Notes under the pieces: generated by a model | Seen by the model: the letters and a program-made list of their open reading frames with translations, nothing else | What the model was told of the DNA's origin: nothing | Databases searched by the model: none | Made by a program: the position numbers and the translations under genes | Shown: positions 22,925 through 52,374 of the stretch, one piece after another | Numbering within the stretch: position 1 is the stretch's first letter | How the letters are laid out: the number at the start of each line of letters is the position of its first letter | Virus record (IMG/VR): IMGVR_UViG_2671180604_000001 | Coordinates: 10,331-74,330 of that record | DNA length: 64,000 nt | DNA from: a virus | Lineage: Duplodnaviria > Caudoviricetes | Strand: one strand, 5' to 3'

Positions 22925-22964
22925 TGGAACATATAGAAATAAGAATATTTTAATTTGCAAAAAT
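22925..22964 (+). promoter_or_regulatory. Putative late promoter
   Basis: TGGAAC-N29-AAAAT; hairpin 22965-22991. Confidence 0.7.
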
Positions 22965-22996
22965 AGCCCTAATACACAATCTATTGGGGCTTTTTC

Positions 22997-23920
22997 ATGT
23001 CTGAAACAGGTCGAAAAACGAAAAGAATTACATACAATCTGCATGAACGTGGTCGCTCTCACTTAGGTAAGGACCGCAGCAATGTTGATATGAATGAAAT
23101 GATCAAACAGATCAATAGTCCTCAAGTACAAGAAATGGTAAAGACAGGGACTTTGTACGGTTATAACGGACATGAAATTCGTAAGCGTTATGGGATGAAT
23201 CCGCCTGATTCCGTCATCATTGATGGAAAGGTAGTTTATCTTGAGCGCTCATTTAGAACAATCGAAGCTTATGCAGATAAAGAGGGGAATGTAACGCATG
23301 TCACTGAGTTTTTAGATAATGAATCTGGTGAATATGCACGAACTCAATATCAAGCACGAGTAGGCGGTTTTAGTTCAGCACAAAACTATAAGAAAGCAGG
23401 ATTAGGACTTATTCCAGTAGGTTTCTACGGCTTTGATTATGTGACTCAACCTAACTACACAACCAATGTTGGAGATGGGCAATTATTTGATGGCTTAGCC
23501 ATTCCAGTTGATCAAGATGGATTGATTGCATCCTTTGATAGCAGTACGGACGTAACTTTGCTTTCGCCGTCAGAAGCAATGATTGCTCATTTACTTGAAC
23601 AGCAAATTATTCGTGACTTTGACAATATTCATGCTCAGTTACAGCTTTTACAAATGAATGGTCAATCATTAGACCAGATTGATGAATTAGCGAATCAAAT
23701 TGCACGAAAAGATAAGCGAGAAGCGATTCAATCACAGCGTATGCAAGACCTTTGTTCTGGATTAGTTGGTGAAGTTCGTTCATTTGATTCTGTATGTGCT
23801 GAAGCAGAGGAACGATTAACTGAAAGTGATCTAGCGCGAATGCGTATAAGTGGTGAAACCACTAAAAATAACAAAGCTAGACCACGCATTTTTAAGAGTA
23901 TGTTCGGATTTGGAGGGTAA
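22997..23920 (+). CDS. Prohead maturation protease (T4 gp21 / herpes-fold type)
   Basis: YGYNGH, GGFSS, GFDYV.QP catalytic-type motifs; C-terminal scaffold-like tail. Confidence 0.7.
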   Translation: MSETGRKTKRITYNLHERGRSHLGKDRSNVDMNEMIKQINSPQVQEMVKTGTLYGYNGHEIRKRYGMNPPDSVIIDGKVVYLERSFRTIEAYADKEGNVTHVTEFLDNESGEYARTQYQARVGGFSSAQNYKKAGLGLIPVGFYGFDYVTQPNYTTNVGDGQLFDGLAIPVDQDGLIASFDSSTDVTLLSPSEAMIAHLLEQQIIRDFDNIHAQLQLLQMNGQSLDQIDELANQIARKDKREAIQSQRMQDLCSGLVGEVRSFDSVCAEAEERLTESDLARMRISGETTKNNKARPRIFKSMFGFGG

Positions 23921-23926
23921 ATACTT

Positions 23927-24733
23927 ATGTCTTTACCTAAAGATTCACTTAAATGCATACAAGATGCCTGGTACAAACTACTAGTCGATTTTAGATCGTG
24001 GTATATGCCAGAAACCATTCAGACAGATGAATGGAAAAAGCGTGATATTCGAACCGCAATTAAAAGTTGTCCTTCACGTATGATGGATGATTCTGAAGCA
24101 ATGCTTGCAGAATATCGTAAAAGTCAAAATGCAGAAGTTGATGGTGGTGCAACGGCATTCATACCAATTATGTTGACTGCTACAGCAATGTTAGATCAAC
24201 CGCCTGATACGATGCAGCTATTACCGATGCCTTACTTTGTGCCTGTAGTAATAGGCGATAAGCAAGTTCAAATTCGATTGATAGCTAAAACGGTCAGAGC
24301 ACAATTAGCGTTCTATGCAACCAATTCGCATGATGCACGTTCCGTATGCGACCAGTTCTGTACTTTTGTACAAAATGAAGATAAACGCCGTTTCCAAGTA
24401 CCATTTGACATGGGCATGAACCATATTCAAAAAAGTACTTTTACCATAGTAGAGAATCAGTTATTTCCATCACCTGTACCAAGTGAAGCCATTAACCTTT
24501 CTATTTTCACTATTGATGTGCAATTGGTCGGTTATGCTCCTCAAATCATAGGACTTGGTGGACCAAACGACAATACAACCGGAAATGGATATAACCCTGA
24601 TGGTTCAGTGGTTGATAAACCAATTCAGGATCTTGTAGTCATTCAAGCTGATCAGTTCACTGTAGATGGTCATACTCGTGTTTTAGCAGATCGTGAAACT
24701 GGAGAAATCACAGTGGAGCGTTTCGATGACTGA
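23927..24733 (+). CDS. Virion structural protein (tail completion-like)
   Basis: Position in late unit; alpha/beta composition. Confidence 0.4.
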   Translation: MSLPKDSLKCIQDAWYKLLVDFRSWYMPETIQTDEWKKRDIRTAIKSCPSRMMDDSEAMLAEYRKSQNAEVDGGATAFIPIMLTATAMLDQPPDTMQLLPMPYFVPVVIGDKQVQIRLIAKTVRAQLAFYATNSHDARSVCDQFCTFVQNEDKRRFQVPFDMGMNHIQKSTFTIVENQLFPSPVPSEAINLSIFTIDVQLVGYAPQIIGLGGPNDNTTGNGYNPDGSVVDKPIQDLVVIQADQFTVDGHTRVLADRETGEITVERFDD

Positions 24734-25235
24734 AATTATTAAGATTGATGCGCGAGTAACTGGATTTTCTAATGATGAAATAAGATTGATCAGTCTTTGT
24801 TTTGCGGATTCTGGTCAAATCCTTGTCCAAAAAACAGATATTTTCACGGCTTTACCTGTACGTCCTGATCAGCAAGCCGATACGATTGTTGTGACGGATT
24901 CACCGAATGTAATCCAAAATTGGCAATTAAAATTTGATGCACAGCAGCATTTAGAAGAAGTCATTAGAGTTTATCAAGCAAGCTTTAGAGCTGGATTAGT
25001 TGAGTTCGAAAAATCGCTTGAACGCTACAATCCTATGAACATTCTTCAGGTTCGGAAAATTGATAAAAATGGATTACAGCAAGAGTTCGATAGTAGTTCA
25101 TTAGATAACGGTCATATCGCAGCATTAATTTCTATTTGGGCAAGTCATAAAATAGCAATTTCACATGCAGTCACTTCAAAAGAGGAAGTTAAAGAAGAAT
25201 ACATCGATAGAACTATGTTGCCGTTTAGTATTTAA
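24726..25235 (+). CDS. Hypothetical phage protein upstream of terminase
   Basis: ORF coupled to both neighbours. Confidence 0.6.
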   Translation: MTEIIKIDARVTGFSNDEIRLISLCFADSGQILVQKTDIFTALPVRPDQQADTIVVTDSPNVIQNWQLKFDAQQHLEEVIRVYQASFRAGLVEFEKSLERYNPMNILQVRKIDKNGLQQEFDSSSLDNGHIAALISIWASHKIAISHAVTSKEEVKEEYIDRTMLPFSI

Positions 25236-25246
25236 AGCGGTGATGT

Positions 25247-27235
25247 ATGGCTCTAAAACCACTTAAAGATATCCCCGAATGGTGGGAACTTTGCGCACGT
25301 TATCGTTATGATATCTATGCCTTTGCAGTAGAGGCTTTAGGTGTTACACCGACTTGGCAGCAAGAACTACTATTTGAGTCAATCCAGTTTGATGGTAGCC
25401 GTACATCGGTTGCATCTGGGCATGGTTGCTTTGGTAAAGGTACGAAAATCCGTTTAGCCAACGGGAAGTGGAAACGTGTTGAAAAAATAACAATAAATGA
25501 TGCAGTAATGGGAACAGATGGCTTTTCACCGCGAGAAGTGATCAAAGTTGTACAGGGATACCAAGAGCTATATCAATTTGAATATGCCAATGGTTCAAAG
25601 CATGTCTATAACAAATCTCACATTCTTTGTTTAGTCTCACTCGAAACAAAAAACGGTTGGAAAGCTGGCGATACCATTGAAGTCCTGGTATCGAAATACC
25701 TTGAATGGCCTGAAGAAACCAAGTGCCAATTTGCAGCATATGAACTGAAACATAGAAAATTCCAGCCTGTAAAAATTAATAGCGTCACAGCCTTGGGAGA
25801 GGGTGATTATTACGGCTTTGTCCTCGATGGTGATGCAACTTTTCTAACAGCTGATGGCATGGTTCACCATAACACTGGTAAAACTGCATCGGCTGGTATC
25901 GTTGCTTTATGGCATCTATTGTTCTTTGTTGAATCCATTACGATGTTCACTGCTCCGCAAATCGGGCAGTTAAAGAAACAAGTCTGGAAAGAAATCAGTA
26001 TTAACCTGTCACGTCTAAAAGCTGGACCATTGGGATGGCTTGCTGATTATATCGGTTATCAGTCTGAATTAGTCTATATCAAAGGCTATAAAGAAAAGTG
26101 GTATGTCTTTGCAAAAACAGCACCTAAGCACCAGCCAACGAACTTGGCAGGGAACCATGCAGATAATTACTTGCTATGGGGTGATGAGGCAAGTGGTATT
26201 CCTGATGAGGTTATGGATGTTGTCCTAGGTGCTTTGACGCATGAAGATAACAGAGCTGTTTTAACTTCACAGCCGACACGTAACGCAGGATTATTCTATG
26301 AGACACATCATAAATTAAGTCACAGAGCCGGTGGTATTTGGATTGCTTTAACGTTCAATGGAGAAGAATCTCCATTAGTAAGTAAGCAATCATTAGAAGA
26401 ACAACGTCAGAAATACGGTAGCCGTGACGATCCTCAATACCAAATCCGTGTTTTAGGTCGCTTTCCAGACCGTGCTGATGAGTTCTTAATCACGAAACGA
26501 CAATCCGAAGAAATGTATGTCGGTGCATCGATTTTCGAAGAACACGTTTTTGGTTATGTGATTACAGTCGATGTAGGCGGTGGCGTTGGGCGAGATGATT
26601 CTGTAATTGCTGTATCGAAAGTTTGGGGTGAAGCTCAATGGGGAGATCGAGCACGCCGTGTTGAAGTTGTTGATATTCCACTTTGTAAGAATAGAGATGA
26701 CATCACAGAGCTTTTTGCCAAGATTAATGAATGCATTTTGAAATATCCTAATGCAACTTTGGTTGTTGATGATAATGGCGCTGGTAAAGGTTTAGGACAA
26801 CTGCTTAAGAAACATGGTATTTGGTTTATGCCTGTTTATTGGGGAGGTGCATGCTTCAATAATGACAATCGTAAAGAGTATGTAAATAAACGTGCCTTGG
26901 CTTATGTTTGTCTTAAACGTGCAATTGAATCGGGTCGTTTCAAAGTTAAAACGAAAAAATTCTTAGTCAAGATTCAAGATCAAATAATCAAGATCCCTTA
27001 TACATTTGATGAGCACAGCCGTTACAAGATTCTAAGTAAAGATGAAATGAAGCGGAAAGGGATTAAATCTCCCGATCTTGGTGACGTTTTCGCATTCTTA
27101 TTCTTAGAAAATGTGTTCTATACAGAAGCATATGAGAATGTTGTTATTGCAGATGATAGTCCAGAAGCACAGGAACGGGCAGAGCGTAAATCTAGGTTTG
27201 ATCAACTTAAAGAAGCAGCAAAGAACATTGATTGA
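25247..27235 (+). CDS. Terminase large subunit containing an intein
   Basis: Walker A SGHG/TGKT split by intein, Walker B WGDEASG, nuclease VDVGGG..RDDS and KSPDLGD. Confidence 0.92.
   Translation: MALKPLKDIPEWWELCARYRYDIYAFAVEALGVTPTWQQELLFESIQFDGSRTSVASGHGCFGKGTKIRLANGKWKRVEKITINDAVMGTDGFSPREVIKVVQGYQELYQFEYANGSKHVYNKSHILCLVSLETKNGWKAGDTIEVLVSKYLEWPEETKCQFAAYELKHRKFQPVKINSVTALGEGDYYGFVLDGDATFLTADGMVHHNTGKTASAGIVALWHLLFFVESITMFTAPQIGQLKKQVWKEISINLSRLKAGPLGWLADYIGYQSELVYIKGYKEKWYVFAKTAPKHQPTNLAGNHADNYLLWGDEASGIPDEVMDVVLGALTHEDNRAVLTSQPTRNAGLFYETHHKLSHRAGGIWIALTFNGEESPLVSKQSLEEQRQKYGSRDDPQYQIRVLGRFPDRADEFLITKRQSEEMYVGASIFEEHVFGYVITVDVGGGVGRDDSVIAVSKVWGEAQWGDRARRVEVVDIPLCKNRDDITELFAKINECILKYPNATLVVDDNGAGKGLGQLLKKHGIWFMPVYWGGACFNNDNRKEYVNKRALAYVCLKRAIESGRFKVKTKKFLVKIQDQIIKIPYTFDEHSRYKILSKDEMKRKGIKSPDLGDVFAFLFLENVFYTEAYENVVIADDSPEAQERAERKSRFDQLKEAAKNID
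25427..25873 (+). mobile_element. Mini-intein (149 aa, no homing endonuclease)
   Basis: Starts CFGKGT.I.LANG, ends YYGF.LDG...FL.ADG.V.HN, followed by Thr. Confidence 0.92.
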
Positions 27236-32943: not shown

Positions 32944-34698
32944 ATGTCAGTTTTATCTGATCCACAAAATGCACAATACCAGACGCAATTGTCCTCAACT
33001 GCTGAGTGTCAAAAATATTTCTACCAGAATGAAGATGCAGCTGGTTTTGATAGTGCAAATAATATGGTTGAAACTAGACCTAGTGCATTAAATAAAATTT
33101 TAGAAATCGTCGGCTTTGATAGTGCATCTGATATTGATAAAGCAATCAATGTTGGTTTATCTCAATATCAATACTGTCACGGTGGTGAATTACCTCATGC
33201 GTCAGTGTTAGCAACTGCTTTAGATGCAGGTTTAACTATTGCAAGCAAAATTAAACCTTTGGCTGATTCATTTCAAAAATTTGAAGATGGTTTTGATGAT
33301 GTAAGTAATACTCATCAAGAATCTGTCAGTATCGTACCAGCAATAACAGTAGCAACTATTGCAACTTTAATTGCTTTCGCAACACCGATCATTGCGTATA
33401 TTCCTAACAGTAATGGTTCAAATGAAGTGCCAATTGTTGCAGTTCGATTTACTACTGACCGTTCATTTGGTGCAATGAACAAAGGTGAATATTTAGATGG
33501 TGTGAATGCGTCTAAACCATACACAGAAGGGCGCTTCCGCTTTGTTCTTAACAATGGTGGTGCTGGTACCACATATACTGCAACTGCTCATACAAAGTAT
33601 GCAGACTTTGCAGCTAAGACTGCTGACACAACTGCACCATTGTTGCCATTCATCGGTGGGAATATTTCGATTCGTATCAATGGCAAAGAAGTAGCGCATA
33701 CCCGTAATCGTAGTAAATCGAAACTATCTGGTCAAATTTCAGCGATTGCTGAAAAATCTGCAAAAATTGCAGGTGTTGAATACAAAGTAACTGCAAGCAC
33801 AATTAATTTAGACACAAGTGCAATTTCAGTAACTTTAGATCAAGCCTTACCAAATGGGGCGAAATTAGAAGTGTTCTTGGTTGCTGACTATGATGCACGA
33901 GATAACTCAAATAAATTTAAGCTTGATCCTGTTGGCGTAAGCATCGCTACAGATTATGAAACCTTGGTGAGCTCTCCAATTGTTACGCAAATTCGAGCTT
34001 CAAAACTATTGGTCAATCAGATTACCAATGAATTGAATGTTGGTTTTGTGGGAACAGCACTGTCATTGATGCAGGGCAAAATTTACCTTGAACAAACAGT
34101 ACGTTTGTTAGGTGAAGGAAAAGAACGTGCTATCTACAATGAACGGGAATTTACTTTTGATGCTAGCCGTGGTGTCACAGGTAATTTAGCTGCTGCTTAC
34201 AATACATCTGGTGACTTGTTCGGTGAGTTCATGAAGTATCTTGAAGCTGCCAAAATCGGCATTGTACAGGATACTGGCGGTGCATCAGTCGGCTTTGATT
34301 TGTACGTGGGTGATAATGCGAAAGTGTTTTTTGCTCAACTATCATCTGACAAAATGCCGACTAAAACAGGTGCAACTGCTGGACATGGTCAAATTGTTCG
34401 TATCGGCACATTAGCAGATGGAACCAACGTTTATCATATTCCAAGTTCTGCTGATGTTCTGGTTGAAGCAGATCAAGCATTTGAAATGTTATTGGTTGGA
34501 CGTGGTAGTGAACCAGTACGAAATCCACTCGTTGGCTTTATTGAGATGCCATTAACGGTTAGTGAAGCCACACCTGATCCGCGAGAAAGCTTGCTTGGAT
34601 TAATGGGTTCACAAGCTGCTGAACTCAATCCTATTGATCGTTATTCAGATCAGTTTGCTTTACTCAACGCGATCAACATGCCAAGACTCAAAAGTTAA
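32944..34698 (+). CDS. Major capsid protein precursor
   Basis: 584 aa, strong RBS and terminator, IGTL.DG..VY motif near the C-terminus, N-terminal propeptide-like region. Confidence 0.7.
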   Translation: MSVLSDPQNAQYQTQLSSTAECQKYFYQNEDAAGFDSANNMVETRPSALNKILEIVGFDSASDIDKAINVGLSQYQYCHGGELPHASVLATALDAGLTIASKIKPLADSFQKFEDGFDDVSNTHQESVSIVPAITVATIATLIAFATPIIAYIPNSNGSNEVPIVAVRFTTDRSFGAMNKGEYLDGVNASKPYTEGRFRFVLNNGGAGTTYTATAHTKYADFAAKTADTTAPLLPFIGGNISIRINGKEVAHTRNRSKSKLSGQISAIAEKSAKIAGVEYKVTASTINLDTSAISVTLDQALPNGAKLEVFLVADYDARDNSNKFKLDPVGVSIATDYETLVSSPIVTQIRASKLLVNQITNELNVGFVGTALSLMQGKIYLEQTVRLLGEGKERAIYNEREFTFDASRGVTGNLAAAYNTSGDLFGEFMKYLEAAKIGIVQDTGGASVGFDLYVGDNAKVFFAQLSSDKMPTKTGATAGHGQIVRIGTLADGTNVYHIPSSADVLVEADQAFEMLLVGRGSEPVRNPLVGFIEMPLTVSEATPDPRESLLGLMGSQAAELNPIDRYSDQFALLNAINMPRLKS

Positions 34699-37367: not shown

Positions 37368-38144
37368 ATGTTAGGTGCAAATAATCCGTTTAATCAAAAA
37401 CCGCAAAAAAATGTATTGAGAGCATTTGATTCTGCTGCTGCAGAAATTAGTAGCAGTGTTAAAACACTGACAAGTTCAATAAGAGAAGAACTTTCATTTA
37501 TCGAACATGTTCGAGAATTAGCTTTGAATATTGTTTCTGATCTTGTTGACGCGGTCACAGACAATACTTTAGATGAAGAAGAGTTGCCGACTGATCGACT
37601 TGATTTTCTAATTCTTGATGCGCTAGATGGTGCAGATGATGAAAATAGCACATTAGAAAATGCATTAGTTTCTTCTATTGATGATGCATTATCTAGCTTT
37701 GGAGTAGATGACTCAGTGATTGCTGAAATCTTTAGTGATAATGTTGAAGCTGCTGATGCTGCTATTGAAGCTGCTGCAAGCACAGTGATTGCCAATATGC
37801 CAGATGATGGTGATCCGTTAGATGAACTTGTACGAGAGTTTATCTATGGAGAACCCGATGAGGAAGAAGGTTTTGACTCGGTTGGGGGTAAGAAAAAGCT
37901 TTCACGCGGTCAGATGTCTACGAAATCAGTTGGTGGTCGTAAAGTACGTTATAAGGCGATTGCAGCAATCCGTAACGGTGTAAAAAAGATTGTGAATAAG
38001 CGTTTACCCGGTCAACGTATTCGTCTTTCAAGTGAACAAAAAGCTGGGCTTAAAAAGGCAAGTTTAAAATCGCGTTCAGCGAATTCATTGAGAAAACGTA
38101 TGAAGTCTTTGCTCAAAGGTAAAAAGATTGGTTTGTATAAATAA
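37368..38144 (+). CDS. Prohead core-like protein (acidic middle, very basic C-terminus)
   Basis: D/E-rich residues ~20-170, K/R-rich last ~85 aa. Confidence 0.55.
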   Translation: MLGANNPFNQKPQKNVLRAFDSAAAEISSSVKTLTSSIREELSFIEHVRELALNIVSDLVDAVTDNTLDEEELPTDRLDFLILDALDGADDENSTLENALVSSIDDALSSFGVDDSVIAEIFSDNVEAADAAIEAAASTVIANMPDDGDPLDELVREFIYGEPDEEEGFDSVGGKKKLSRGQMSTKSVGGRKVRYKAIAAIRNGVKKIVNKRLPGQRIRLSSEQKAGLKKASLKSRSANSLRKRMKSLLKGKKIGLYK

Positions 38145-41576: not shown

Positions 41577-41605
41577 AGTTGTAATTGTTAATCTTTGGCG
41601 AATAT

Positions 41606-43147
41606 ATGGCTGCTTCAGACATTTTATCCCTTTTGTTAGGACCAAGTGCGAATAGCATCCCTCAGCAATTGGTTGATGCTAACCAAGAAGTCATGGCGCA
41701 AATGTATGATTCAGTAGCTCCATTTTCACTTGGCACGCATACTACACCTGAAAATAAAAAAAGAACCCGTAAAGAGATTTTGACCAAGTGGGAGCAAATG
41801 CTAAAGTTTGCCCCCGTACCAGAAGGCATCGGTATACATGTCATGGCTGCGCTTGGGGGTGATACGCACAGTGGTCAACAAATTTTTATCACACCAACAG
41901 AGCGATTACGTGGAGAAATTGGAGCAACGGAAAAAGCCCAATTAGAAAAACTAAAAAAGCGAATTAAACCTGTAGAAACCATTATTAATAAATACATTAC
42001 TAAATTATGTTCGGAAGGTATTTCCTTTGGGGATGCCTATGCCCGTGTATATGGCAAAAAGGGAGTAGGTGTTACTGACTTACTTAGTAATGAATATACC
42101 TATGCACCTCAAATACAGGCATTCGAGCAGGGCAGTAAGACAGTCGCTTACTTTGCTCTGAATCCAAAGAACTGGTCCAAAGTCATTACGAAATTAAATG
42201 CCACACAGATGGTACGGATGAAATTGCCACGGATTCAAAATGTACCGCAATTTGATCCAGTAGAAGCTAGTTTAATTTCTCAAATGCTGGAAGGTGACGA
42301 TCCTGAAGAACTACCGATTTTACCAGCGCAAGTTGGTGGCTCTTTTTTGATTGCCATAGAGAAAACCTATGATGATGTCATTCTTGCCTTAACCACGATG
42401 AACAGTCAGCAAGTCGCTGATGCTGTTAATCAAATGTTTCTGACGCTGAACATGGCAGGTATGCCTCCAGCACAACGAGATGCTTATATCCGTGGTCTAG
42501 AGGGAATGCTCAAAGATCATGAGAAGTTCGTAAAAAATGCAATGGAAGGTGGTGAAGGTATTTGGAATACTAAATATCACGTATTACCGACTTGGGATGA
42601 AAAACAGATTCTTAATCCCGTTGGAGATATCAAAGGGCAACGTAATTCACCGGTTAATATTGAAACTTTTATGATTAATGTTCGCTTGCTAATGGGGGGA
42701 ATTGGTCTTGACCCTTCAATGGTTGGGTGGGCTGATATGCTTTCTGGTGGAATTGGAGATGGGGCAGCCTTTCATACGTCAAGTCAGATTATGCGCCGTT
42801 CCATGTATATCAGACAATCAGCCGTTCAATTCGCCAATGATATTATGCACATCGATTGGGGCTATTGTTACAACGAACAATTTGAAGCAGGTGAGCTTGA
42901 TTTTCCATGGCAAATTGAATTTTCTAGTACCCAGTCAGCAGCTGTGACTGAAGAAAATACCAATAAGCAAACTCAAATGAATACATCGCTGCTTAAAATC
43001 CAAGTCATTACCTCCCTTAAAGAATCGGAATTAAGCGAAGAAACCATGCAATATATATTAGAAAAAGATGCTGGTTTTAATTATGACGATTCATGTCGCA
43101 TCGCTGCGGATATTGCGAAATCTCGTAAAAATGCTGGGAGTGAATAA
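41606..43147 (+). CDS. Portal protein
   Basis: ~513 aa; FGDAYARV, GGSFL, G.DPSM.G and W.IEF motifs in portal-like order. Confidence 0.7.
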   Translation: MAASDILSLLLGPSANSIPQQLVDANQEVMAQMYDSVAPFSLGTHTTPENKKRTRKEILTKWEQMLKFAPVPEGIGIHVMAALGGDTHSGQQIFITPTERLRGEIGATEKAQLEKLKKRIKPVETIINKYITKLCSEGISFGDAYARVYGKKGVGVTDLLSNEYTYAPQIQAFEQGSKTVAYFALNPKNWSKVITKLNATQMVRMKLPRIQNVPQFDPVEASLISQMLEGDDPEELPILPAQVGGSFLIAIEKTYDDVILALTTMNSQQVADAVNQMFLTLNMAGMPPAQRDAYIRGLEGMLKDHEKFVKNAMEGGEGIWNTKYHVLPTWDEKQILNPVGDIKGQRNSPVNIETFMINVRLLMGGIGLDPSMVGWADMLSGGIGDGAAFHTSSQIMRRSMYIRQSAVQFANDIMHIDWGYCYNEQFEAGELDFPWQIEFSSTQSAAVTEENTNKQTQMNTSLLKIQVITSLKESELSEETMQYILEKDAGFNYDDSCRIAADIAKSRKNAGSE

Positions 43148-43150: not shown

Positions 43151-43864
43151 ATGGCTATGCACTTAAATATTTCCAAAGGTCGTAATACAAGTGGTGTATG
43201 GACTGGAATGCCAATTGATGAAGCTTTAACGCAATACCAGAAAATTTACAGTTGGGGGACGTTATCCTCATTACATTATGGTGTATGGCTTGAACCATTC
43301 GACGAGGAAGGGAAAATAGCAAAAGAGTCAATCGAGCTGATTGACTCTTACGATTTAACACATCATGAGGCAGGAAATTTCAATGCTTTTGAAAAAGGAG
43401 AAAAAGGATTTTTACCTGGAACTAAAATCGAAAGTATTCCATTGATGGACAACACAAAATTGCCTTGGCTTTGTCAGAGTTTAGATTTATCCGTTTTAGA
43501 TGCTCAAACAGATAGCGTACAAATTGGTACATTCCAACTCAATCACATCACTGGAAATAGTTCGGGTGAAATATCAATTCCCTTCATTGAAACACGTAAT
43601 GCATCAATTCTGAATAGTGCTTTGGCAATAAAAGCGATCATGTTTCCTGAAGGTGAGGATGGAGGGACACAAGCCTTACCAAATGATTATTTGATGCGGT
43701 TGACAATTTACATTTACGACAGACATAGTATTTCTACGCGAGTTTTTGAGATCAAGCATTTAGTAGCTTTGCAAACTGGAAGTATTCCACTAGACGCAAC
43801 TAACAAAAATGGTGTTGGGATCGTTACTTTGAATTTTATTAAGATGTTCCCGATGTTGAAGTAA
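43151..43864 (+). CDS. Tail tube initiator / baseplate tube-like protein
   Basis: Beta-rich tube-fold-like sequence. Confidence 0.4.
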   Translation: MAMHLNISKGRNTSGVWTGMPIDEALTQYQKIYSWGTLSSLHYGVWLEPFDEEGKIAKESIELIDSYDLTHHEAGNFNAFEKGEKGFLPGTKIESIPLMDNTKLPWLCQSLDLSVLDAQTDSVQIGTFQLNHITGNSSGEISIPFIETRNASILNSALAIKAIMFPEGEDGGTQALPNDYLMRLTIYIYDRHSISTRVFEIKHLVALQTGSIPLDATNKNGVGIVTLNFIKMFPMLK

Positions 43865-43979: not shown

Positions 43980-45038
43980 ATGAAAGTAATAAATATAAAT
44001 GAATTGTCTAATATTTTAGAGCATTCTGATGATTTTACTAAGGAGTTAAGTAAGTATGTAGATGTTGTATATACAGATGATGGTTTTGATTTTGTACCTA
44101 AGGGAAATTTGAAAGTAATTGATGATGATGGTACAGAAATATATAATTTTGAAAATTCACTAATGTTGAAGGACAGAAGAGGATTCGTTTTAAATACTAA
44201 TTCTCAATGGACCTTGGCATCAAAAAGTATATTTAAAAATTCAGCATTTAAAGGAGTATTTAATCCTTTTAAAGATTTTATTATAGATATAGAAAGAAAA
44301 AATAGAATTAAAAAATTCTACTCAAAGAAAAAAAGCGGTAATTACAATAGGATAGTAATTTCATGTGGTGATTCTTGGCTACAGCATCCTTTAAATAAAG
44401 ATATTATCGATGCATTGGAAGAATCCGATAATGATTATGCAATATACTGCATAGCACGTGCTGGAAAAGAGTTACGAGAAATAATTAACGAAAAAGAGTT
44501 TATTTCTCCTCTAAAAACTGAAAAAGCTAGTGCATTTATATTTAGTGCAGGAGGTAATGATATATTAGATGATGTATCCCTATTTGTTCATAATTTTGAT
44601 GTAAATAAATCACCTAGAGAACATTTAAATCAAGACTATTTTAATAAACTTGATCAGTTGAAATATTGGTATAAAGAGGTTTTCTTGAGTGTCATTCAAT
44701 ACAGTAAATCAATCGATAAAATAATTGTACATAGTTATGATTATCCAATACCTGTAAGCCACAATGATGGGCGATCTGGAAATTGGATTGGAAAAAAGTT
44801 AGACGAAAAGCGTAATATTAAAGATAGATCTTTACAAAAGAAAATTATTACAGAGGTGATTAATGATATTTATGCAATATTGCATGAATTATCTACATCG
44901 AAAGAGTTTTTGGATAAAATAATTCTATTAGATTTTAGAGGGAAATTCACTAAAGCATCAGAATGGTTTGATGAAATTCACCCGAATAAGTCTAGTAATA
45001 AAATTCTGGCTAATATTATTGCAAATCAAATTTCTTAA
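43980..45038 (+). CDS. SGNH/GDSL hydrolase (moron)
   Basis: GDSW, SAGGND, DEIHP blocks; no signal peptide. Confidence 0.85.
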   Translation: MKVININELSNILEHSDDFTKELSKYVDVVYTDDGFDFVPKGNLKVIDDDGTEIYNFENSLMLKDRRGFVLNTNSQWTLASKSIFKNSAFKGVFNPFKDFIIDIERKNRIKKFYSKKKSGNYNRIVISCGDSWLQHPLNKDIIDALEESDNDYAIYCIARAGKELREIINEKEFISPLKTEKASAFIFSAGGNDILDDVSLFVHNFDVNKSPREHLNQDYFNKLDQLKYWYKEVFLSVIQYSKSIDKIIVHSYDYPIPVSHNDGRSGNWIGKKLDEKRNIKDRSLQKKIITEVINDIYAILHELSTSKEFLDKIILLDFRGKFTKASEWFDEIHPNKSSNKILANIIANQIS

Positions 45039-45129: not shown

Positions 45130-47031
45130 ATGCGAAATATCGACATATTTACTTTATTACATGAACCACATACCAGTCGTTTAGTACAGGGATTTGATTC
45201 TGTAAATAGTGGTGCTTGTTCAATTGGATTGATCAAAGGGCAATATCGTCAGCTCAATGCGATTGTTGCAGAGTCTGCAACGGAAGAAGATCAGTGGCGT
45301 ATTGTCAATTTAAAGGGTTCAATCAATAGCATTGCAGCGTTTGATTCAGTTGCCGTTTTAGGTGCAGTTGATAATGACCATGCAAGTGCATTAGCACAAA
45401 TGCAGTTTGGACGTATGTTCGATGCCATTGAAAATGATGTAATTGAAACCAATACAAATGGTCTCTTACGCCATTTAGCCACATCACAATTTCATAAGAA
45501 TATGCAACTTATTCATCGAGATCATTTAGTCGCATTGCAAGACATTCCATGTGCTGTATTACCAGGTTGGGACAGTATTGAACTTACAACACATGAAGGA
45601 AAAACAGCAAATCTGCTATTAGACATGCAACTTCATGATGACAATACAGAACTATTATCTAGTTTTGATGGTTTAGCCAATTTGCTTGAATCAATTGGAG
45701 CAGAACACCCTGATTTTGATTCAATCATTGTTGAGTATCAATATCTCGATAAATTAATGAATATGCTGCATACAGCCATGCAAACAGCGTCTAAAGGCGG
45801 TGTAAAGGTTCTAAATGTAGATCGTAGTGAAAAGCCATTTCGACACAAAAAAGTGCTGAATGTCGCCGTTTCATATGATTTTGAAGATGGGCAATCCATT
45901 ACGATTCTATTCCATAATCCTGATCGTGACGCAAAACGGATTTCGCCACAAGACACTTTATTGTCGTGGAAGATTCTCATGAATAAGCGTGATGTAACAG
46001 GCGTGATTCAGCCAAACCAAGGTGAGGGTATTGCATTACCTGTACTTGCTGGGCGTGTTGTTAAATTGATTAATCAGAACAGCGCACGGTTTAAACGTAC
46101 TCAGGCTAAGAAAGCCGAAAGTGCGCAAACTTTAGCTGATACCGAACAACGTATTGCAGATAAGCAAAATCAAAAGACGGCATTATCTTCAGAAATTCAG
46201 GGGCTACTTGATCAAATTGATGGATTAAATAAGCAAAATAATGGTCAAGCTCCAAATGTTGATACTGGTGCGGTGGATAATGCTGCACAATCTGTAAATA
46301 CAAAAGCTGTGACCAAAGCTGAAGCTCGTCAAATTTATGATGTTTTAAGTACAAGTCACCGTTGGTTGACTGGTGGTACCACTGAAGAATTCTATAACCA
46401 GAATTATCCTACTGGAATAGATGAAGCGCTTATAGATGCAAAAAACCTTCTTGAACGTCCATTTGGAAAAGTTGCTTTGGCAAATGGATTAAAAGATTCA
46501 ATTGAACGAATGATTGCAACTGTAGAAAATACAATTGAACGCTGGAATAAAGGTTTAAGTGAAGATTCATCAAAAGCCAAAACCTATCCGCCTATTGAGG
46601 ACTTAGGTGATGGTTATTACAAAGCCTTCAAAAATGATAAAAAACTTGATGATTGGACAGCCCATATCAATACATATGGCGAATGGCAAGTATCAGCAAA
46701 TAATGCTTCATCTCGTGCTTGGAACAATGGCTATGGGGCACCTCGATTCTTTAAAACACTTGATGAAATGATTGCTAAGTATCCAGCATTTGCTGCATTA
46801 CCTGCAATGTTACCAACAGAGGATAATGCAAACGATAATAGCAATAATGATGATGCAGAATATTTGAATAAAGTCATTAAAGGTGAGGTTGATTTCTCAA
46901 ATGCAAGTGAAGTTGAAACTCAACTAGAAACTATTGGTGGGCGTTTAACGTCTGAAACAAATGATTTATTTGAACAAGCTGTTTCAGCTTATTCGATGTA
47001 TCAAGTAAACCAAGCTGCATCGGTCAATTAA
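45130..47031 (+). CDS. DarA-like internal head protein
   Basis: F.DGQSITI.FHNPD...W...NKRDVT..I.P..G...NS.RF.R DarA_N-type domain followed by coiled coil. Confidence 0.75.
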   Translation: MRNIDIFTLLHEPHTSRLVQGFDSVNSGACSIGLIKGQYRQLNAIVAESATEEDQWRIVNLKGSINSIAAFDSVAVLGAVDNDHASALAQMQFGRMFDAIENDVIETNTNGLLRHLATSQFHKNMQLIHRDHLVALQDIPCAVLPGWDSIELTTHEGKTANLLLDMQLHDDNTELLSSFDGLANLLESIGAEHPDFDSIIVEYQYLDKLMNMLHTAMQTASKGGVKVLNVDRSEKPFRHKKVLNVAVSYDFEDGQSITILFHNPDRDAKRISPQDTLLSWKILMNKRDVTGVIQPNQGEGIALPVLAGRVVKLINQNSARFKRTQAKKAESAQTLADTEQRIADKQNQKTALSSEIQGLLDQIDGLNKQNNGQAPNVDTGAVDNAAQSVNTKAVTKAEARQIYDVLSTSHRWLTGGTTEEFYNQNYPTGIDEALIDAKNLLERPFGKVALANGLKDSIERMIATVENTIERWNKGLSEDSSKAKTYPPIEDLGDGYYKAFKNDKKLDDWTAHINTYGEWQVSANNASSRAWNNGYGAPRFFKTLDEMIAKYPAFAALPAMLPTEDNANDNSNNDDAEYLNKVIKGEVDFSNASEVETQLETIGGRLTSETNDLFEQAVSAYSMYQVNQAASVN

Positions 47032-47044: not shown

Positions 47045-47362
47045 ATGAATGGCTTAGAGAAGTTAAAACTTACGAAAGAATTACGTACTTTACTTGAGCA
47101 GATCCCGAATCTAAAAGGAATGGAGAAACTTCAAAGCGCTAAGCGATTACGTGAACTGCTTGAGTTGCTTGGTGGAAAGTCTAATGAGGCCGTGAATAAG
47201 CTGTTTCAGTCTATCATTGACGGTGATGTCAAAGTTTCTGTTGAGCTACTACAAAATGTTCGTAGTGAAGCCGAGAAAAACTTAGATGACCCACTATTAC
47301 TTGAGGCGGTAAATGTCTTGATAGCTCAAGTTAATGAGATAGTTGGAACTGAGCAAGCTTAG
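47045..47362 (+). CDS. Small helical protein of the Dar-like cluster
   Basis: Internal repeat GLEKL..TK.LR.LL / GMEKL..AK.LR.LL. Confidence 0.65.
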   Translation: MNGLEKLKLTKELRTLLEQIPNLKGMEKLQSAKRLRELLELLGGKSNEAVNKLFQSIIDGDVKVSVELLQNVRSEAEKNLDDPLLLEAVNVLIAQVNEIVGTEQA

Positions 47363-47419: not shown

Positions 47420-50248
47420 ATGAAGAAGATCGATAATATTTCCAAATATACGGATGTTTTGGCTGCTATTGATTCAATGGTTACAGCATTAGGCAATCAA
47501 GTCATTGTTGAGTGGGATGGTGAACAGGAGAGTAAAATATATCAGGAATATTTAGATAATCTTGATCAATATGATGGTAAATCAATTACAGCATCAAAGG
47601 CTTATTTTAATGAGCATTTAAATGGAAAGTTGATTAAAACCAAAATTGGTTTAGTTCGTATTAACTCTAAATCTCGTGGAAAAATTCATGACCGTATGCG
47701 AGATGCAAAGTATCTTGCATTACCTTATATTCCAGAAGTTTTGATGACGGGTGATGTAAGTGATTTAGTACCGCTAAATAAAGATCGTGATGATAGTGCG
47801 GTAGGTTACTATGTATTTAATAAATTAAAGGAATTGGAAAATTACAGTCTGAATATTACATTAAAAGTGGCTTTGGATTCTGATGGGAATTTATTGTATT
47901 ACTTAGGAGCAGCAAAAGAAAAAGCCAACTTACGGACTGTCTCACAGGTCATTAACCCCACAGGCTCTAAAGCTGGCTTTGATTCTATTGAATCATATGA
48001 TGATGATGAAATCAATCTATATGTACAAGTTTTAGACAAAAACGGTAATGTACTGGCAGAGGATGATGCTGAAAAATTAATATGGGGAGATAGTCCAAAA
48101 GCTGCATCTTTAATTCTTAAAGGCAGATTAAACAACGTCAAAACAGCTAAAGGCACTAAGGTATCAACAGTATTTGCAGTATTGGAAGTTGATAAGGTTA
48201 TTGCCTCACATACTGCAACTGGCAGCGAAAATCCTAATTATCCTCAAGAACTACAACCACGAGATCGTAGTCGAGAGTCTTCTCAAGCGTGGGTGCAAAA
48301 AACTTCAAATACTTTAGATCCAGAAAGCTTGGGACGTTCAGGTCGTGCAGATACGGGTGCGCCTATTGTCGGTGATGATTTGGTAGTTGAGTCTGGTAAT
48401 GGCCGTACTATGGCAATCCAGCTTGCATATGAGCGCGGAAATGCTGATGAGTACAAAGAATGGTTGATTGATGAAGCAGAATATTTTGGCTTTAGTGCGG
48501 ATCAAATCAACCAATTTAAACAGCCTATCCTTGTGCGTATTCGTACCTCTGAAATTGATCGTATTCAATTCACAGTAGAAGCCAATCAAGATGATAAGTT
48601 GTCCTTTAGTGCTACTGAACGAGCAAAAACAGATGCAAGACGATTAGATGAGAACCTATTGTCACTGTTTACACCTGGTGAAGATGGCGACCTAATCACT
48701 GCAAGTAATCAGAAGTTTATCCAAGGATTTTTAAAGTCTTTAGGTGAAACGGAAGCAGCTCAATATATCGGGACAGATGGAAAGCCAACACAAGCATTAG
48801 TCACACGTATGAAAGCTGCAATATTCAGCAAAGCTTATAATGATGACCGACTTCTTGAAATGATGGCAGACCAAACAAAACCAGACTTGCAAAATATGCT
48901 AAATGCACTGGGAGCAGCTGCTCCAAAATTTATTGAAGCGCAATCTGTCAGCCGTGGTGACGTGCAGGATGTATCAAGTTCTATCGTTGATGGTATTGAG
49001 CAAGCACTTGATAAGCGAGTGACAAATGCAATTATTGATGCAGCGAATACGATCTTGGCAGCAAAGCAAAATGATCAAGATATTGTTGAATTTGTAAAAC
49101 AACAGGGGTTATTTGGTGATCTAGGCGAAGGCGTGCCAGAGCTTGCAGTATTCTTATCTAAGAATAGTCGCAGCGCCAAAAAGATGAGTTTGCTATTCAA
49201 AGCAATGGCAGAGTTTGCAGAAAAAGAAGCGATTGATGGGAAAAACATGGGGCTTTTTGGTGAACCTGAACCTGTCAACATCAAAGATGCAATCAATTAC
49301 GCCGTGAAAGTGATTGAGGATAATTATGGTGATAATGCCAATCTGAGCATGTTTGATTCTATTGATTCACTTACGACAATAGATGAAAAAGCACATGATG
49401 CAGCTACATCACCTCATAATGATTTAGACTTTCCAACAGCAGAACAAAAGCAAACTGGTGAATACCCAAAAGGGCAATTATCAATTGGTGATTTACAGAT
49501 TGCAATTGAGAATCCAGCAGGTTCAACGCGCTCTGGTGTTGACCCCAATGGAAATGATTGGGAAATCAAACTTTGTCATCATTATGGATACATAGAGAAT
49601 ACTACTGGTGCCGATGGTGACGAAATTGATGTATTTGTTAAGAATCATCTAGAGCATGTACCAGAGTTCGCTTATATCATCAATCAGCTAAATTTAGATG
49701 GTACTTTTGACGAACAGAAAGTGATTTTAGGAGCTGAGACAGAAGAAGAAGCCAAAGCGATCTATATGTCTAATTATTCTGAGAGGTGGCAGGGTTTTGG
49801 CGGAATCAAAAAGATTTCAATGAAGGAACTACTTACTAAGATTCAGCATACGTGGTCTGAGTTTGATTCTTGGGTAATGGATGGAAATTATGAGCATATT
49901 CCAGTTGATAAAATCAATATGGAAAATGCCCCTAAGATTCATGAAAGTAATATTAGTAAAGAAGATCCAATTGTAGTAATAGAAAAGAATGGGACATACT
50001 TTCTTGTTGCTGGCTTAGAACGCATTGCGTTTGCAAAACAAAGAAGTGAAAAACTCATTCCAGCGATCATTTTTGATGATAAAGAAGTGAAAACATCAAT
50101 TATTCAAAAAGCTATTAAAAAAGCAGGTTCAAGCGTGGACCCTGTTGCATTGGCTGCGCTTATTGTTGATGAATTAGATAAAAGTGTATTGAAAGAATTC
50201 GATGATATTTCAAATACAGTATTAGACTTCCTACATAGATTTGAGTGA
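47420..50248 (+). CDS. Polyvalent protein: LPD3-like + DdrB-ParB + inorganic-pyrophosphatase-like + ParB-like domains
   Basis: QPRDR, GAPIV...VESGNGR (DdrB-ParB); IEN..GS.RSG...YGYI..T.GADGD.IDVF (InPase); PIVV...LVAG.ER. Confidence 0.8.
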   Translation: MKKIDNISKYTDVLAAIDSMVTALGNQVIVEWDGEQESKIYQEYLDNLDQYDGKSITASKAYFNEHLNGKLIKTKIGLVRINSKSRGKIHDRMRDAKYLALPYIPEVLMTGDVSDLVPLNKDRDDSAVGYYVFNKLKELENYSLNITLKVALDSDGNLLYYLGAAKEKANLRTVSQVINPTGSKAGFDSIESYDDDEINLYVQVLDKNGNVLAEDDAEKLIWGDSPKAASLILKGRLNNVKTAKGTKVSTVFAVLEVDKVIASHTATGSENPNYPQELQPRDRSRESSQAWVQKTSNTLDPESLGRSGRADTGAPIVGDDLVVESGNGRTMAIQLAYERGNADEYKEWLIDEAEYFGFSADQINQFKQPILVRIRTSEIDRIQFTVEANQDDKLSFSATERAKTDARRLDENLLSLFTPGEDGDLITASNQKFIQGFLKSLGETEAAQYIGTDGKPTQALVTRMKAAIFSKAYNDDRLLEMMADQTKPDLQNMLNALGAAAPKFIEAQSVSRGDVQDVSSSIVDGIEQALDKRVTNAIIDAANTILAAKQNDQDIVEFVKQQGLFGDLGEGVPELAVFLSKNSRSAKKMSLLFKAMAEFAEKEAIDGKNMGLFGEPEPVNIKDAINYAVKVIEDNYGDNANLSMFDSIDSLTTIDEKAHDAATSPHNDLDFPTAEQKQTGEYPKGQLSIGDLQIAIENPAGSTRSGVDPNGNDWEIKLCHHYGYIENTTGADGDEIDVFVKNHLEHVPEFAYIINQLNLDGTFDEQKVILGAETEEEAKAIYMSNYSERWQGFGGIKKISMKELLTKIQHTWSEFDSWVMDGNYEHIPVDKINMENAPKIHESNISKEDPIVVIEKNGTYFLVAGLERIAFAKQRSEKLIPAIIFDDKEVKTSIIQKAIKKAGSSVDPVALAALIVDELDKSVLKEFDDISNTVLDFLHRFE

Positions 50249-50415: not shown

Positions 50416-51579
50416 ATGAAATTAATGTCGAGAAAACAAAGGAAATATTTTAAAAATATTCGCCATTATCGTTTCTTAGCTATTCAAAAGCCAAATAAAC
50501 AAAAAAGAAGAGAAAGAGATGTATCAAAAGCTAGAAAAAAAAGAAATAAGCTGAAACTAGCTTCTGAACGTATTAATATTTATTTAAAAATGCCTACAAA
50601 TGTAACGATTATCACGAGAAAAATACGTGGTGAGTTGATTAAAATTACAAGAAGGTTTAGAGAGTTTTATCATCGTACTAATATTTGCCTGAATTTAGAT
50701 TTTTCAGATACCAAGAAGATGTTTGCTGATGGCACTCTATACTTCTTAGCAGAACTTGACTCATTAATTATTCTGAATAAAGACATTACTTTTAAAATCA
50801 CATTTTCTAATGAAAAAATTGTAAATCAAGTTCTTGAACAAACAGGAATTCTTAAACTATTAAATAAAAAAATGAAATTTGATGATGAAGAGTTTGACGA
50901 TACTGTGAAGTATTGGAATTATGCTTCTGGACACAATTCTGAAATTGATTCAGCAGATTCTATGTTAGATGATTTCGATCAAATTCTTGCTTCTACAACG
51001 AGTCGAGATGTATTTACTGTATTAACTGAAGCTTTAACTAATTGTCATCAACATGCTTATATTGAAAAACGTTTTCCAACTGCTCCAAAATCAATAAAAA
51101 AATGGTGGCTCTTTTCTGAGATTAGAGAAGATAAGTTAACAGTATGTGTATGTGATTTAGGGGTGGGGATTCCTAACTCTTTAAAAGTTGACTCACCAGA
51201 CGTACAGCAAAATTGGTTTCAGGTACTCAAAGATTTCTTAGCTAAACATAAAGTTAAGAATGATTTTGATGGAGCAGCAATCAAGGCAGCTATTGAAATT
51301 TCTAATACAAGGACCAATTTACCAAATAGAGGTAAAGGGCTTAATCAGATCATCAACAAAGTTAATACAATTAGTGACGAAAAGGTGTCTGTGGCAATTT
51401 ACAGCAATAAAGGTTCCTATATAATTAATAGAGGACTTGTGACAGACTTGGAAAAAACAGGTATTGTTGACGGAATTTCTATTCCGTACAAGGAATCTAT
51501 TGAAGGTACGTTAATTGTTTGGAGTATACCTTTAGATAAGCAACCAAATAACCAAGATTTGGTGGTGTCAGATGAGTAA
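50416..51579 (+). CDS. STAS-like + histidine-kinase-like ATPase protein
   Basis: EALTNC..HAY (N box), DLGVGIP (G1), RGKGL (G2); basic N-terminus. Confidence 0.8.
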   Translation: MKLMSRKQRKYFKNIRHYRFLAIQKPNKQKRRERDVSKARKKRNKLKLASERINIYLKMPTNVTIITRKIRGELIKITRRFREFYHRTNICLNLDFSDTKKMFADGTLYFLAELDSLIILNKDITFKITFSNEKIVNQVLEQTGILKLLNKKMKFDDEEFDDTVKYWNYASGHNSEIDSADSMLDDFDQILASTTSRDVFTVLTEALTNCHQHAYIEKRFPTAPKSIKKWWLFSEIREDKLTVCVCDLGVGIPNSLKVDSPDVQQNWFQVLKDFLAKHKVKNDFDGAAIKAAIEISNTRTNLPNRGKGLNQIINKVNTISDEKVSVAIYSNKGSYIINRGLVTDLEKTGIVDGISIPYKESIEGTLIVWSIPLDKQPNNQDLVVSDE

Positions 51580-51910
51580 AAATGTAATGAAAATCAATGT
51601 AGCATCAGATTTCTCGAAGAATCCGTCTGGGCGTTATATTTTAGATGGTAAAACATCTGGCGAAGCATTTTTAAAAAATGTTTTGTTACCTGCCGTGAAA
51701 ACGCATGATTTTGTCGAAATAAATTTTGATGGTGTACGTGGATATGGTTCATCCTTTCTAGAAGAGGCGTTCGGTGGTTTTATTCGTGAAACCAAGATGT
51801 CTGTTGCAGATTTTTTTAAGAAAATTAAAATTATTTCTCAAGACCCTTTTTTATTAATCGAAATTAAGGAATATCTTGAGGATGAGTCTAAAAGGATATT
51901 GTCTGCTTAA
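51572..51910 (+). CDS. STAS-like domain protein (DUF4325-type)
   Basis: P.GR...DG..SGE.F, I.FDG..GYGSSFLEEAFGG. Confidence 0.85.
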   Translation: MSKNVMKINVASDFSKNPSGRYILDGKTSGEAFLKNVLLPAVKTHDFVEINFDGVRGYGSSFLEEAFGGFIRETKMSVADFFKKIKIISQDPFLLIEIKEYLEDESKRILSA

Positions 51911-52374
51911 TGGCTCCTTGGATTAAAGACTCTATATTACCTTTTCTACCTTCACTACTCACTATCTTAGGGTGGTGGATAGTTGGTAGAAGGGATGGTA
52001 TTGGTAAGAAAAAAGAAGCCCATAATCGAAGAGTAAACTTAGCTATTGAGCAGTCTCAAAAAATTTATGAATCTGCAAAAAAATTCTATCTTTTATCTGG
52101 TTCAGCTCCAGAAGCTTCTGCGTTAGAAGATATGTTAAATTGCGACTTTAGAAGACTGAGCACGATCCTTGGTCTTGTAAACAAAAGCTTAATTTCTGAA
52201 AATCAAAAGCAATCGATAGGTAATTCATTCATCGAATATAAAAAAGTAGTTACTGGTGGGCAATTTGGTACAAGATCTAGAAATGCATACCCCTTGAACC
52301 ATCTGCTTTTTGTAGAAATAGATAATACTTATAATGATTTTTTTCTAGAACTTGAAAAAATTATGCAGATTTAG
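51910..52374 (+). CDS. Hypothetical protein with N-terminal TM segment
   Basis: Translationally coupled to the STAS gene. Confidence 0.7.
   Translation: MAPWIKDSILPFLPSLLTILGWWIVGRRDGIGKKKEAHNRRVNLAIEQSQKIYESAKKFYLLSGSAPEASALEDMLNCDFRRLSTILGLVNKSLISENQKQSIGNSFIEYKKVVTGGQFGTRSRNAYPLNHLLFVEIDNTYNDFFLELEKIMQI

Follow-up and report, generated by a model that had tools for sequence, protein, structure and literature searches.

How might a phage protein that joins several domains in one chain deliver them as separate effectors? The question is raised by a 942-amino-acid (aa) polyvalent protein, encoded at positions 47420..50248 of a 64,000-nucleotide stretch of viral DNA (the window), which corresponds to bases 10331-74330 of the 74,330-base phage record IMGVR_UViG_2671180604_000001. 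The tripeptide Phe-Asp-Ser (FDS) lies between the domains of this protein, and an initial annotation of the locus had proposed that it marks sites at which the prohead protease cuts one packaged precursor into independent effectors. According to the data reported below, hydrophobic-Asp-Ser, cut after the Asp residue, is probably the protease site, and the 942-aa protein probably a polyprotein processed inside the prohead. Cutting by the prohead protease is the best-supported reading, because a protease gene was found, the motif marks also the capsid protein, the protease itself and DarA, a similar site is cut in phage P1, and the motif resides at the module junctions of homologues.

Most of the 74-kb genome of a temperate Acinetobacter myophage, the head module of which is distantly P1-like, is covered by the window. 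The closest named phage is the temperate Acinetobacter myophage vB_AbaM_ABMM1 (ABMM1), 62% identical in the capsid protein and 78% in the DdrB-ParB part. The LPD3, DdrB-ParB and InPase domains have been defined by Iyer, Burroughs, Anand, de Souza and Aravind in 2017 (Iyer 2017). In their scheme, polyvalent proteins enter the host at invasion, and an embedded zincin-like metallopeptidase (MPTase) splits them into individual units.

Modules and motifs of the polyvalent protein

Three Pfam domains were identified in the 942-aa protein, all above the family cutoffs: LPD3 (residues 60-160, E 1.3e-8, 35.4 bits, the cutoff being 27), ddrB-ParB (244-375, E 1.1e-34) and InPase (675-807, E 4.1e-42). Polyvalent proteins carry at least two domains of the conflict catalogue in one polypeptide, encoded by a phage or conjugative element, and this one carries three. 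The domain names first assigned are correct in these three cases, while the ParB-like label of the last module corresponds to a weak PHROG match only (phrog_3264, E 0.0011, residues 849-894).

FDS is found exactly three times, at residues 187, 645 and 815 (nucleotides 47978, 49352 and 49862), as initially noted, and never within a Pfam domain. In an AlphaFold2 model of the protein, made from a 35-sequence alignment (mean predicted local distance difference test score, pLDDT, of 65), the stretches with pLDDT <50 include residues 164-198, 638-649 and 811-824, and one FDS resides in each. The earlier remark that the domains are free of the motif is thus confirmed, both by the Pfam bounds and by the location of all three copies in low-confidence linkers. 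The count is of little statistical weight inside a single protein: 0.20 FDS are expected from composition, and at least three were obtained in 0.155% of 20,000 shuffles, but this figure would be lost if corrected for the tripeptide chosen, as nine tripeptides are present at least three times in the sequence.

Related tripeptides are FDD at residues 885 and 927, and WDG at residue 32. F927-D-D resembles the capsid site G-F-D-D-V-S-N described below. In 49 homologues this column is FDD in 25, FDS in 12, FDG in 4 and FDE in 3, and is followed by a conserved tail of 13-14 residues. W32-D-G, proposed at the outset as the first site of the series, was rejected: the LPD3 region is structured and modelled with moderate confidence at this point, the third residue shows no conservation, and the tripeptide falls outside the motif family.

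The motif at module ends of homologues

Polyvalent homologues numbered 270 at E up to 1e-10, and the 120 listed ones were analysed. They combine LPD3, LPD1, DdrB-ParB, InPase, MuF-C, DarA_N and unnamed modules. When the module ends of the window protein were projected onto them, the end of LPD3 was FDS in 52 of 57 homologues. The end of the DdrB-ParB module, found in 118 homologues, is FDS (92), YDS (13), FDD (4), FDH (3), FDA (2), FDN (1) or other (3), [FY]D followed by any residue being thus conserved in 115. The InPase module ends with FDS (86), YDS (3) or FDD (1) in 90 of 104 homologues, and with a shifted M-M-F-D-x in 4. In nine proteins InPase is the last module, and the chain ends without motif. 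Loss of the motif from modules that come last suggests that it is needed only where something follows.

Cutting the 120 homologues after the [FY]D of [FY]DS yields 442 segments, sorted into 66 families. The motif terminates 34 families, 26 of which measure at least 60 aa. The DdrB-ParB segment has 22 different right-hand neighbours, and whole segments are swapped or inserted between motifs, as in the arrays 2-0-1-3, 2-0-1-5, 4-0-1-3, 4-0-11-1-3, 0-11-1, 2-0-23-1-3 and 1-49-0-50, where numbers denote segment families. Homology breakpoints are located within 3 residues of a motif in 22% of 869 cases, against 1.9% of random positions. The comparison of motifs and junctions in homologues of different domain content, suggested as a check by the initial annotation, was favourable. 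Conserved protease-type sites in linkers between functional units, one of the features by which polyproteins cut by viral proteases are recognized, are present in this protein.

The motif in head proteins

The tally of the proteome covered 95 non-nested open reading frames (ORFs), or 22,793 aa. FDS is found 16 times in the genome. Six head-related proteins, 2,904 aa in total, account for 13 copies against 0.56 expected (Poisson 1.6e-13), and no other tripeptide is as over-represented in this set. The rest of the proteome (19,889 aa) contains 3 copies versus 3.82 expected, and is not enriched. The six proteins are the polyvalent protein, DarA, the major capsid protein, the product of ORF 22997..23920, and those of a 258-aa and a 180-aa ORF. 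All six ABMM1 orthologues keep the motif at the same places, as FDS or YDS. Ser codons of both codon families (AGC, AGT, TCT, TCA, TCG) are used at the 13 window sites, denoting that selection or conservation acts at the protein level.

Three N-terminal sites are conserved among 120 DarA homologues: the first is FDS in 90 (F-D in 113), the second and third are [FY]D[SA] in 114 and 119, respectively. In 59 homologues of the capsid protein, down to 33% identity, the N-terminal 120 residues are variable, and the FDS of site 1 is nearly invariant. A second FDS is found ~20 residues after the first, and G-F-D-[DS] directly precedes the conserved core. In P1 the capsid protein gp23 is cut between E120 and S121, and mature gp23 starts at S121, as determined by Edman degradation (PMC9024508). 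The sequence at the cut is A-M-L-E/S-V-A-A (here and below, slashes within motifs denote cuts). The two phages feature the same pattern, made by a hydrophobic, an acidic and a Ser residue, at the border of a scaffold-like N-terminus and the shell domain.

A prohead protease of the P1 Pro family

P1 Pro matches the product of ORF 22997..23920 (phmmer E 3.9e-20, BLASTP 5e-22). Relatives were searched among 1.84 billion cluster representatives, and 284 were found at E up to 1e-3. In the 129 full-length ones H59 and S126 are invariant, and H101 is 94% conserved. The model of the protease (pLDDT 80) matches T4 gp21 (5jbl) with Z 10.5 and a root mean square deviation of 3.0 A over 130 of 165 residues. 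Herpesvirus proteases are the next structural matches (Z 5-7). The fold was also recognized by Foldseek (E 2.9e-3, probability 1.00). ORF 22997 thus features both the assemblin or T4 gp21 fold and the invariant His and Ser residues. Only chance-level rows were obtained by phmmer when the protease was compared to PDB sequences.

The first FDS of the protease, at residue 180, is located just past the protease domain, and its counterpart in the alignment with P1 Pro is M-F-E-S169. Among the 129 representatives, 120 carry one or more [FYLM]-[DE]-S in the tail after the protease domain, usually two to four. LDS predominates (175), followed by FDS (100), YDS (25), MDS (19), LES (14), FES (3) and MES (1). 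A specificity of the hydrophobic-D/S type is suggested by the motif statistics of proteome, capsid proteins and protease tails.

Two other ORFs were evaluated as protease genes and discarded. ORF 43151..43864, which adjoins the portal gene, has neither P1 Pro similarity nor a Pfam match, and ORF 22997 was preferred; ORF 37368 similarly exhibits no similarity. The P1 pro gene (NC_005856, 19014-20033) carries the RefSeq product name "tail fiber protein". The same label is borne by phrog_1801, matched by the window protease too, and is wrong, because fold and homology identify a capsid maturation protease.

The analysis was extended to a distant set of 80 viral loci found by an alignment query; a single LDS-type protease (P0329), used as query, retrieved no loci in viral contigs. 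In the protease tails of this set 136 of 162 motifs are LDS, with at least one in 77 of the 80 proteases. The late capsid site, scored in 47 loci, is LDS in 37, FDS in 5, MDS and LDD in 1 each, and is missing from 3. At the early capsid site FDS persists in 43 of the 47. Since LDS marks both the protease tails and the late capsid site, the hydrophobic residue changes together in two putative substrates. When the 3,615 ORFs of at least 100 aa in the distant loci were ranked by motif count, the top 40 included 27 proteases, 10 capsid proteins and 3 others, two of which are polyvalent proteins (PBECR1/InPase/DarA_N/LPD3). The DdrB-ParB module was searched in five distant viral records, and none was found.

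Relationships with P1 DdrB

Residues 235-648 align with residues 27-443 of P1 DdrB (41% identity over 418 residues), and the alignment stops exactly at S-M-F-D-S-I in the window protein, opposite to G-L-F-E-S-V in P1. No alignment was found past P1 DdrB residue 443, and the C-terminal zincin-like metallopeptidase half of the P1 protein has no counterpart in the 942-aa protein. Genes encoding the portal, a DarA_N protein and a DdrA-like protein reside upstream of the polyvalent gene, the order darA-ddrA-ddrB being as in P1, while the genes of the P1 Pro-type protease and of the capsid protein are located elsewhere in the genome, away from this run. In terms of orthology with P1 DdrB, the protein has the ParB module downstream of darA and ddrA, and lacks the C-terminal metallopeptidase half.

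The homologies extend to the portal and Pro proteins, and motifs align both in the protease tails and at the end of the DdrB module, with F-D-S in the window phage and F-E-S in P1. The P1 DdrB, DarA and DdrA proteins have been identified as head proteins through liquid chromatography-tandem mass spectrometry (LC-MS/MS; PMC9024508), and P1 Pro processes gp23 and DarA (for DarA, see PMC12810830). In the ABMM1 paper, only six gel bands were identified by LC-MS/MS. By analogy with P1 DdrB as a head protein, and from its late-gene context, the polyvalent protein is likely delivered with the DNA into the host. The P1 system differs in several respects: the C-terminal half of DdrB, in which the MPTase is said to reside (Iyer 2017), is a different one, and the protein has neither LPD3 nor InPase; the acidic residue of the site is Glu (L-E/S) rather than Asp; and processing of DdrB has been attributed to its own MPTase, not to Pro.

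Proposed processing pathway

What the sequences show is the motif, with its positions, enrichment and conservation, and a protease recognized by homology and fold. From these we infer a cleavage site in FDS, packaging of the 942-aa protein, and cutting at each of its three junctions. The protein would be loaded into the prohead as one chain. The protease encoded by ORF 22997..23920 would cut after the Asp of hydrophobic-Asp-Ser (F-D/S here, Glu replacing Asp in P1), in the three disordered linkers and perhaps also at F927-D/D. Predicted products are LPD3 (21.1 kDa), DdrB-ParB (50.2 kDa), InPase (19.0 kDa) and a C-terminal piece (12.5 kDa), plus a 14-residue tail of 1.7 kDa. The same enzyme would trim itself, dismantle the N-terminal region of the capsid protein, and clip short peptides off the N-termini of DarA and of the 258-aa protein. 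Pieces of this size, the larger ones at least, would by analogy with P1 remain in the head and exit with the DNA; that they are small enough for ejection is a conjecture of the initial annotation. The coordinates of all the elements involved are reported in Table 1.

Table 1. Modules, predicted sites and genes of the window discussed in the text
Feature	Position	Strand	Basis
Prohead protease, P1 Pro homologue, 307 aa; own FDS at aa 180 and 263	22997..23920	+	phmmer, alignment, fold
180-aa ORF beside terminase gene; conserved FDS at aa 132	24693..25235	+	
Major capsid protein, 584 aa; two FDS (aa 35, aa 58), FDD at 117 before conserved core	32944..34698	+	
258-aa ORF, acidic 1-169, basic 170-258; FDS at aa 20 and 169	37368..38144	+	
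Portal protein	41585..43147	+	phrog_1497 E 1.2e-184; P1 Prt E 1.7e-34
DarA homologue, 633 aa; FDS at aa 22, 71, 196	45130..47031	+	Pfam DarA_N; motif conservation
DdrA-like small protein, no motif	47045..47362	+	PHROG 4.2e-6
Polyvalent protein gene, DdrB homologue, 942 aa	47420..50248	+	ORF, Pfam, P1 DdrB alignment
Module 1, LPD3, aa 1-188, ending F187-D188	47420..47983	+	Pfam; homologue ends; linker 164-198 pLDDT <50
F187-D-S, predicted cleavage site, cut after D188	47978..47986	+	Motif, homologue column, AlphaFold linker
Module 2, aa 189-646: variable lead-in 189-231 and DdrB-ParB core 232-646	47984..49357	+	Pfam, P1 alignment, homologues
F645-D-S, predicted cleavage site; aligns with P1 DdrB L-F-E-S 440-442	49352..49360	+	Motif, alignment, linker
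Module 3, InPase, aa 647-816	49358..49867	+	Pfam; homologue ends
F815-D-S, predicted cleavage site	49862..49870	+	Motif, homologue column, linker
Module 4, weakly ParB-like, aa 817-928	49868..50203	+	PHROG E 0.0011; low model confidence
F927-D-D, possible last site ahead of conserved 14-residue tail	50198..50206	+	Homologue column; capsid-site likeness

Evidence against cleavage at every site

Several observations weigh against the prohead-protease reading, or limit its range. One concerns P1 DdrB, which according to one sentence in Iyer 2017 is processed to a single 76-kDa polypeptide. This size fits a cut at D-I-E708/A (residues 1-708 measure 77.2 kDa), and cannot be reconciled with cleavage at the aligned F-E-S442, the products of which would be of 48.0 and 60.8 kDa. 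It follows that a motif at a junction need not be cut: either Leu or Ile is favoured by P1 Pro ahead of the acidic residue, or not every junction motif is used. P1 DarA, in turn, is devoid of any [FYWLM]-[DE]-S. It features L-L-E/A at residues 66-69, fitting the 1-69 stretch absent from the cryo-electron microscopy map, with a remainder of 61.7 kDa. The D-I-E/A of DdrB, at residues 706-709, similarly fits the product that the literature ascribes to MPTase self-cleavage. Judging from the sequences, Pro may make both P1 cuts, at L-L-E/A in DarA and D-I-E/A in DdrB.

The comparison of capsid sites has limits of its own. The window and P1 capsid proteins match marginally (phmmer E 4.6e-4), and no tblastn match to P1 was obtained with the window protein at E up to 10. 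Since the two proteins can barely be aligned, the equivalence of their sites is approximate, and refers to position and pattern. Moreover, the P1 site has Glu and Leu where the window phage has Asp and Phe.

Not all motif-like tripeptides are in linkers. FDD885 (residues 885-887, nucleotides 50072-50080) is located in a predicted strand (879-885) of the last module, and its column is FD plus any residue in 47 of 49 homologues, FDS in 5. Either FDD885 is structural, or the last module is really two units. In DarA, the FDS at residue 196 stands at the very start of DarA_N, as the first residue pair of this domain, and may likewise be structural. Because of FDD885 and DarA FDS196, some occurrences of the motif may have a structural role.

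Conservation of the motif at module ends is partly due to shared ancestry, and the motif does not mark all polyvalent proteins. FDS is absent from 4 of the 120 listed homologues, at least one copy being found in the other 116. [FLMYIV]DS is missing from 4 of 8 members of an InPase-DarA_N polyvalent family of distant phages, one of the four being truncated by the edge of its locus. The rule thus does not extend to polyvalent proteins in general. The claim of the initial annotation that FDS is present at each domain junction is correct in part. The linkers hold the motif, but the left edge of the DdrB-ParB core, at residue 232, is 44 residues past FDS187, and is the main exception among the homology breakpoints. 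What the motif accompanies is therefore the C-terminal end of the module that precedes it. As for the central idea of cleavage into independent effectors, the protease gene, the shared motif and the P1-like site are in its favour, the 76-kDa DdrB product and the loss of W32-D-G as a site are not.

Alternative explanations

Among the alternatives, the one that survives best holds that the motif is indeed a protease site, but that only some occurrences are cut here, at a terminus or at a single junction, and that the protein in the virion is mostly multi-domain. The single P1 DdrB product is consistent with this hypothesis, one cut at I-E/A708 leaving F-E-S442 intact, as are the SPN3US phage data, in which nearly all mapped cuts remove propeptides rather than separate domains (PMC10052503), and the FD[DS] at residue 885 inside a predicted strand. 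We regard partial cutting as rather unlikely, as all three FDS are in low-confidence linkers, and should be accessible, and as the motif is lost where a module is last.

In a second alternative F-D-S is not cleaved, and serves for docking or targeting, by binding to the inside of the capsid, to the scaffold region or to the protease, each module carrying one for packaging. The motif is confined to head-associated proteins, and P1 Dar proteins need targeting signals, none common to them having been found (PMC9024508). The location of the motif at the border between the N-terminal region and the mature core of the capsid protein, where P1 gp23 is cut, and its family-wide recurrence in the tail of the protease itself, are both typical of cleavage sites, and make pure docking improbable. 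Docking and cleavage roles are compatible, and not exclusive.

The hypothesis that the motif marks in the DNA a hot spot of recombination, or is passively inherited with modules and has no role in the protein, accounts for the exchange of cassettes exactly between motifs and for much of the conservation, which is within homologous modules, but is highly improbable in view of the five different Ser codons at 13 sites, the 26 unrelated segment families of at least 60 aa that end in the motif, its presence in capsid protein, protease and DarA, which are not shuffled, and the lack of enrichment in the remaining proteome. Self-processing, proposed in Iyer 2017 for P1 DdrB and for polyvalent proteins with a zincin-like MPTase domain generally, is hardly credible here, as no peptidase family reaches the Pfam cutoff in the 942-aa protein at E up to 0.1 (the sole peptidase row, Peptidase_M9_N, scored 13.5 bits against a cutoff of 23.9), and the C-terminal part of P1 DdrB does not align with it.

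Other genes of the window

The first 169 residues of the product of the 258-aa ORF are strongly acidic, the last 89 are rich in Lys and Arg, and the two parts are divided by E-E-G-F-D-S. Both its motifs are kept in ABMM1. By its composition, it looks like an internal head protein, the basic, perhaps DNA-binding, part of which would be freed from an acidic pro-region by the prohead protease. The 180-aa ORF resides just upstream of the large terminase gene, and features a conserved Q-Q-E-F-D-S-S-S. It has no Pfam match, and homologues are present in ABMM1 and in 79 of the 80 related viral loci.

A 352-aa ORF (43980-45038, plus strand) is found between the portal-adjacent gene and darA, and has no counterpart there in ABMM1. 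No Pfam match at E up to 0.01, and no PADLOC match at E up to 0.001, were obtained for it. It contains a G-D-S-W block, which we take to be reminiscent of SGNH/GDSL hydrolases. A three-gene cassette (50416-52374, plus strand) is located directly 3' of the polyvalent gene, and may be a moron. A sub-threshold match to HATPase_c_2 (E 7.7e-4) was obtained with its first ORF (387 aa). PADLOC yielded no match for any of the three genes, nor for six neighbouring ORFs. ABMM1 encodes, in its tail-gene region (16609-26964), a 3,451-aa protein absent from the window phage. This contains one YDS and no FDS, and is therefore not a predicted substrate of the protease.

Comparison with other processing systems

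Cleavage of internal head proteins at a short motif which they share is an established activity of prohead proteases. T4 gp21 cuts at L-x-E or I-x-E. The maturation systems of T4, phiKZ-like phages and SPN3US resemble that proposed here in the assemblin or gp21 fold of the protease, the acidic residue before the cut, the long propeptides cut several times, and the sharing of one short motif by capsid protein, protease and internal proteins. In SPN3US, 14 cuts by the protease gp245 have been mapped in 9 proteins. They follow A-X-E, the next residue being preferentially Ser, and all but one (13 of 14) remove N-terminal propeptides (PMC10052503). Unlike there, the sites described here separate complete enzyme domains of one chain, which are independently shuffled. 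In the polyproteins of RNA viruses, similarly, one translation product has conserved protease sites in the linkers between functional units. The difference is that cleavage would occur here inside the assembling capsid of a DNA phage, and that the products would be cargo for the next host, not replication proteins.

Processing into units is also part of the Iyer 2017 scheme, which differs in the agent, an MPTase domain that the 942-aa protein does not have. In the available text of that paper neither a linker motif nor a role of the prohead protease was found, "prohead protease" occurring once, in the title of a reference. The literature search retrieved no statement that polyvalent proteins are cut by prohead proteases, though the supplementary tables of Iyer 2017 and of the P1 papers may hold relevant data, and none of the matches listed is a phage case in which cleavage separates the domains of a polyvalent protein. 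What is new here is the proposed specificity of the P1 Pro family, the presence of sites that separate complete enzyme domains, and the coincidence of these sites with shuffling units.

Biological implications

Tentatively, and with some doubt, the data may be read in a wider sense. Hydrophobic-Asp/Glu-Ser sites, cut before the Ser residue, may be standard connectors across phages with P1 Pro-type proteases, such that flanked effector domains can be added, removed or reordered in a head-packaged polyprotein, and still be released free in the capsid. The 76-kDa form of P1 DdrB would then be made by Pro at I-E/A708, and not by its own metallopeptidase. If so, the free shuffling of polyvalent domains would follow from the fact that cassettes are bounded by protease sites.

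If the sites are cut, a recognition rule would become available for a large uncharacterised family of prohead proteases (284 representatives), of which P1 Pro is the only studied member. It would allow the mature cargo proteins of such phages to be predicted from sequence only, and be of practical use in the loading of P1-like capsids with foreign proteins. Cutting would also explain why domains with different cellular targets share one gene product, and are shuffled as whole cassettes. Some polyvalent anti-defence proteins would then be polyproteins, matured by the capsid protease and not by an embedded peptidase.

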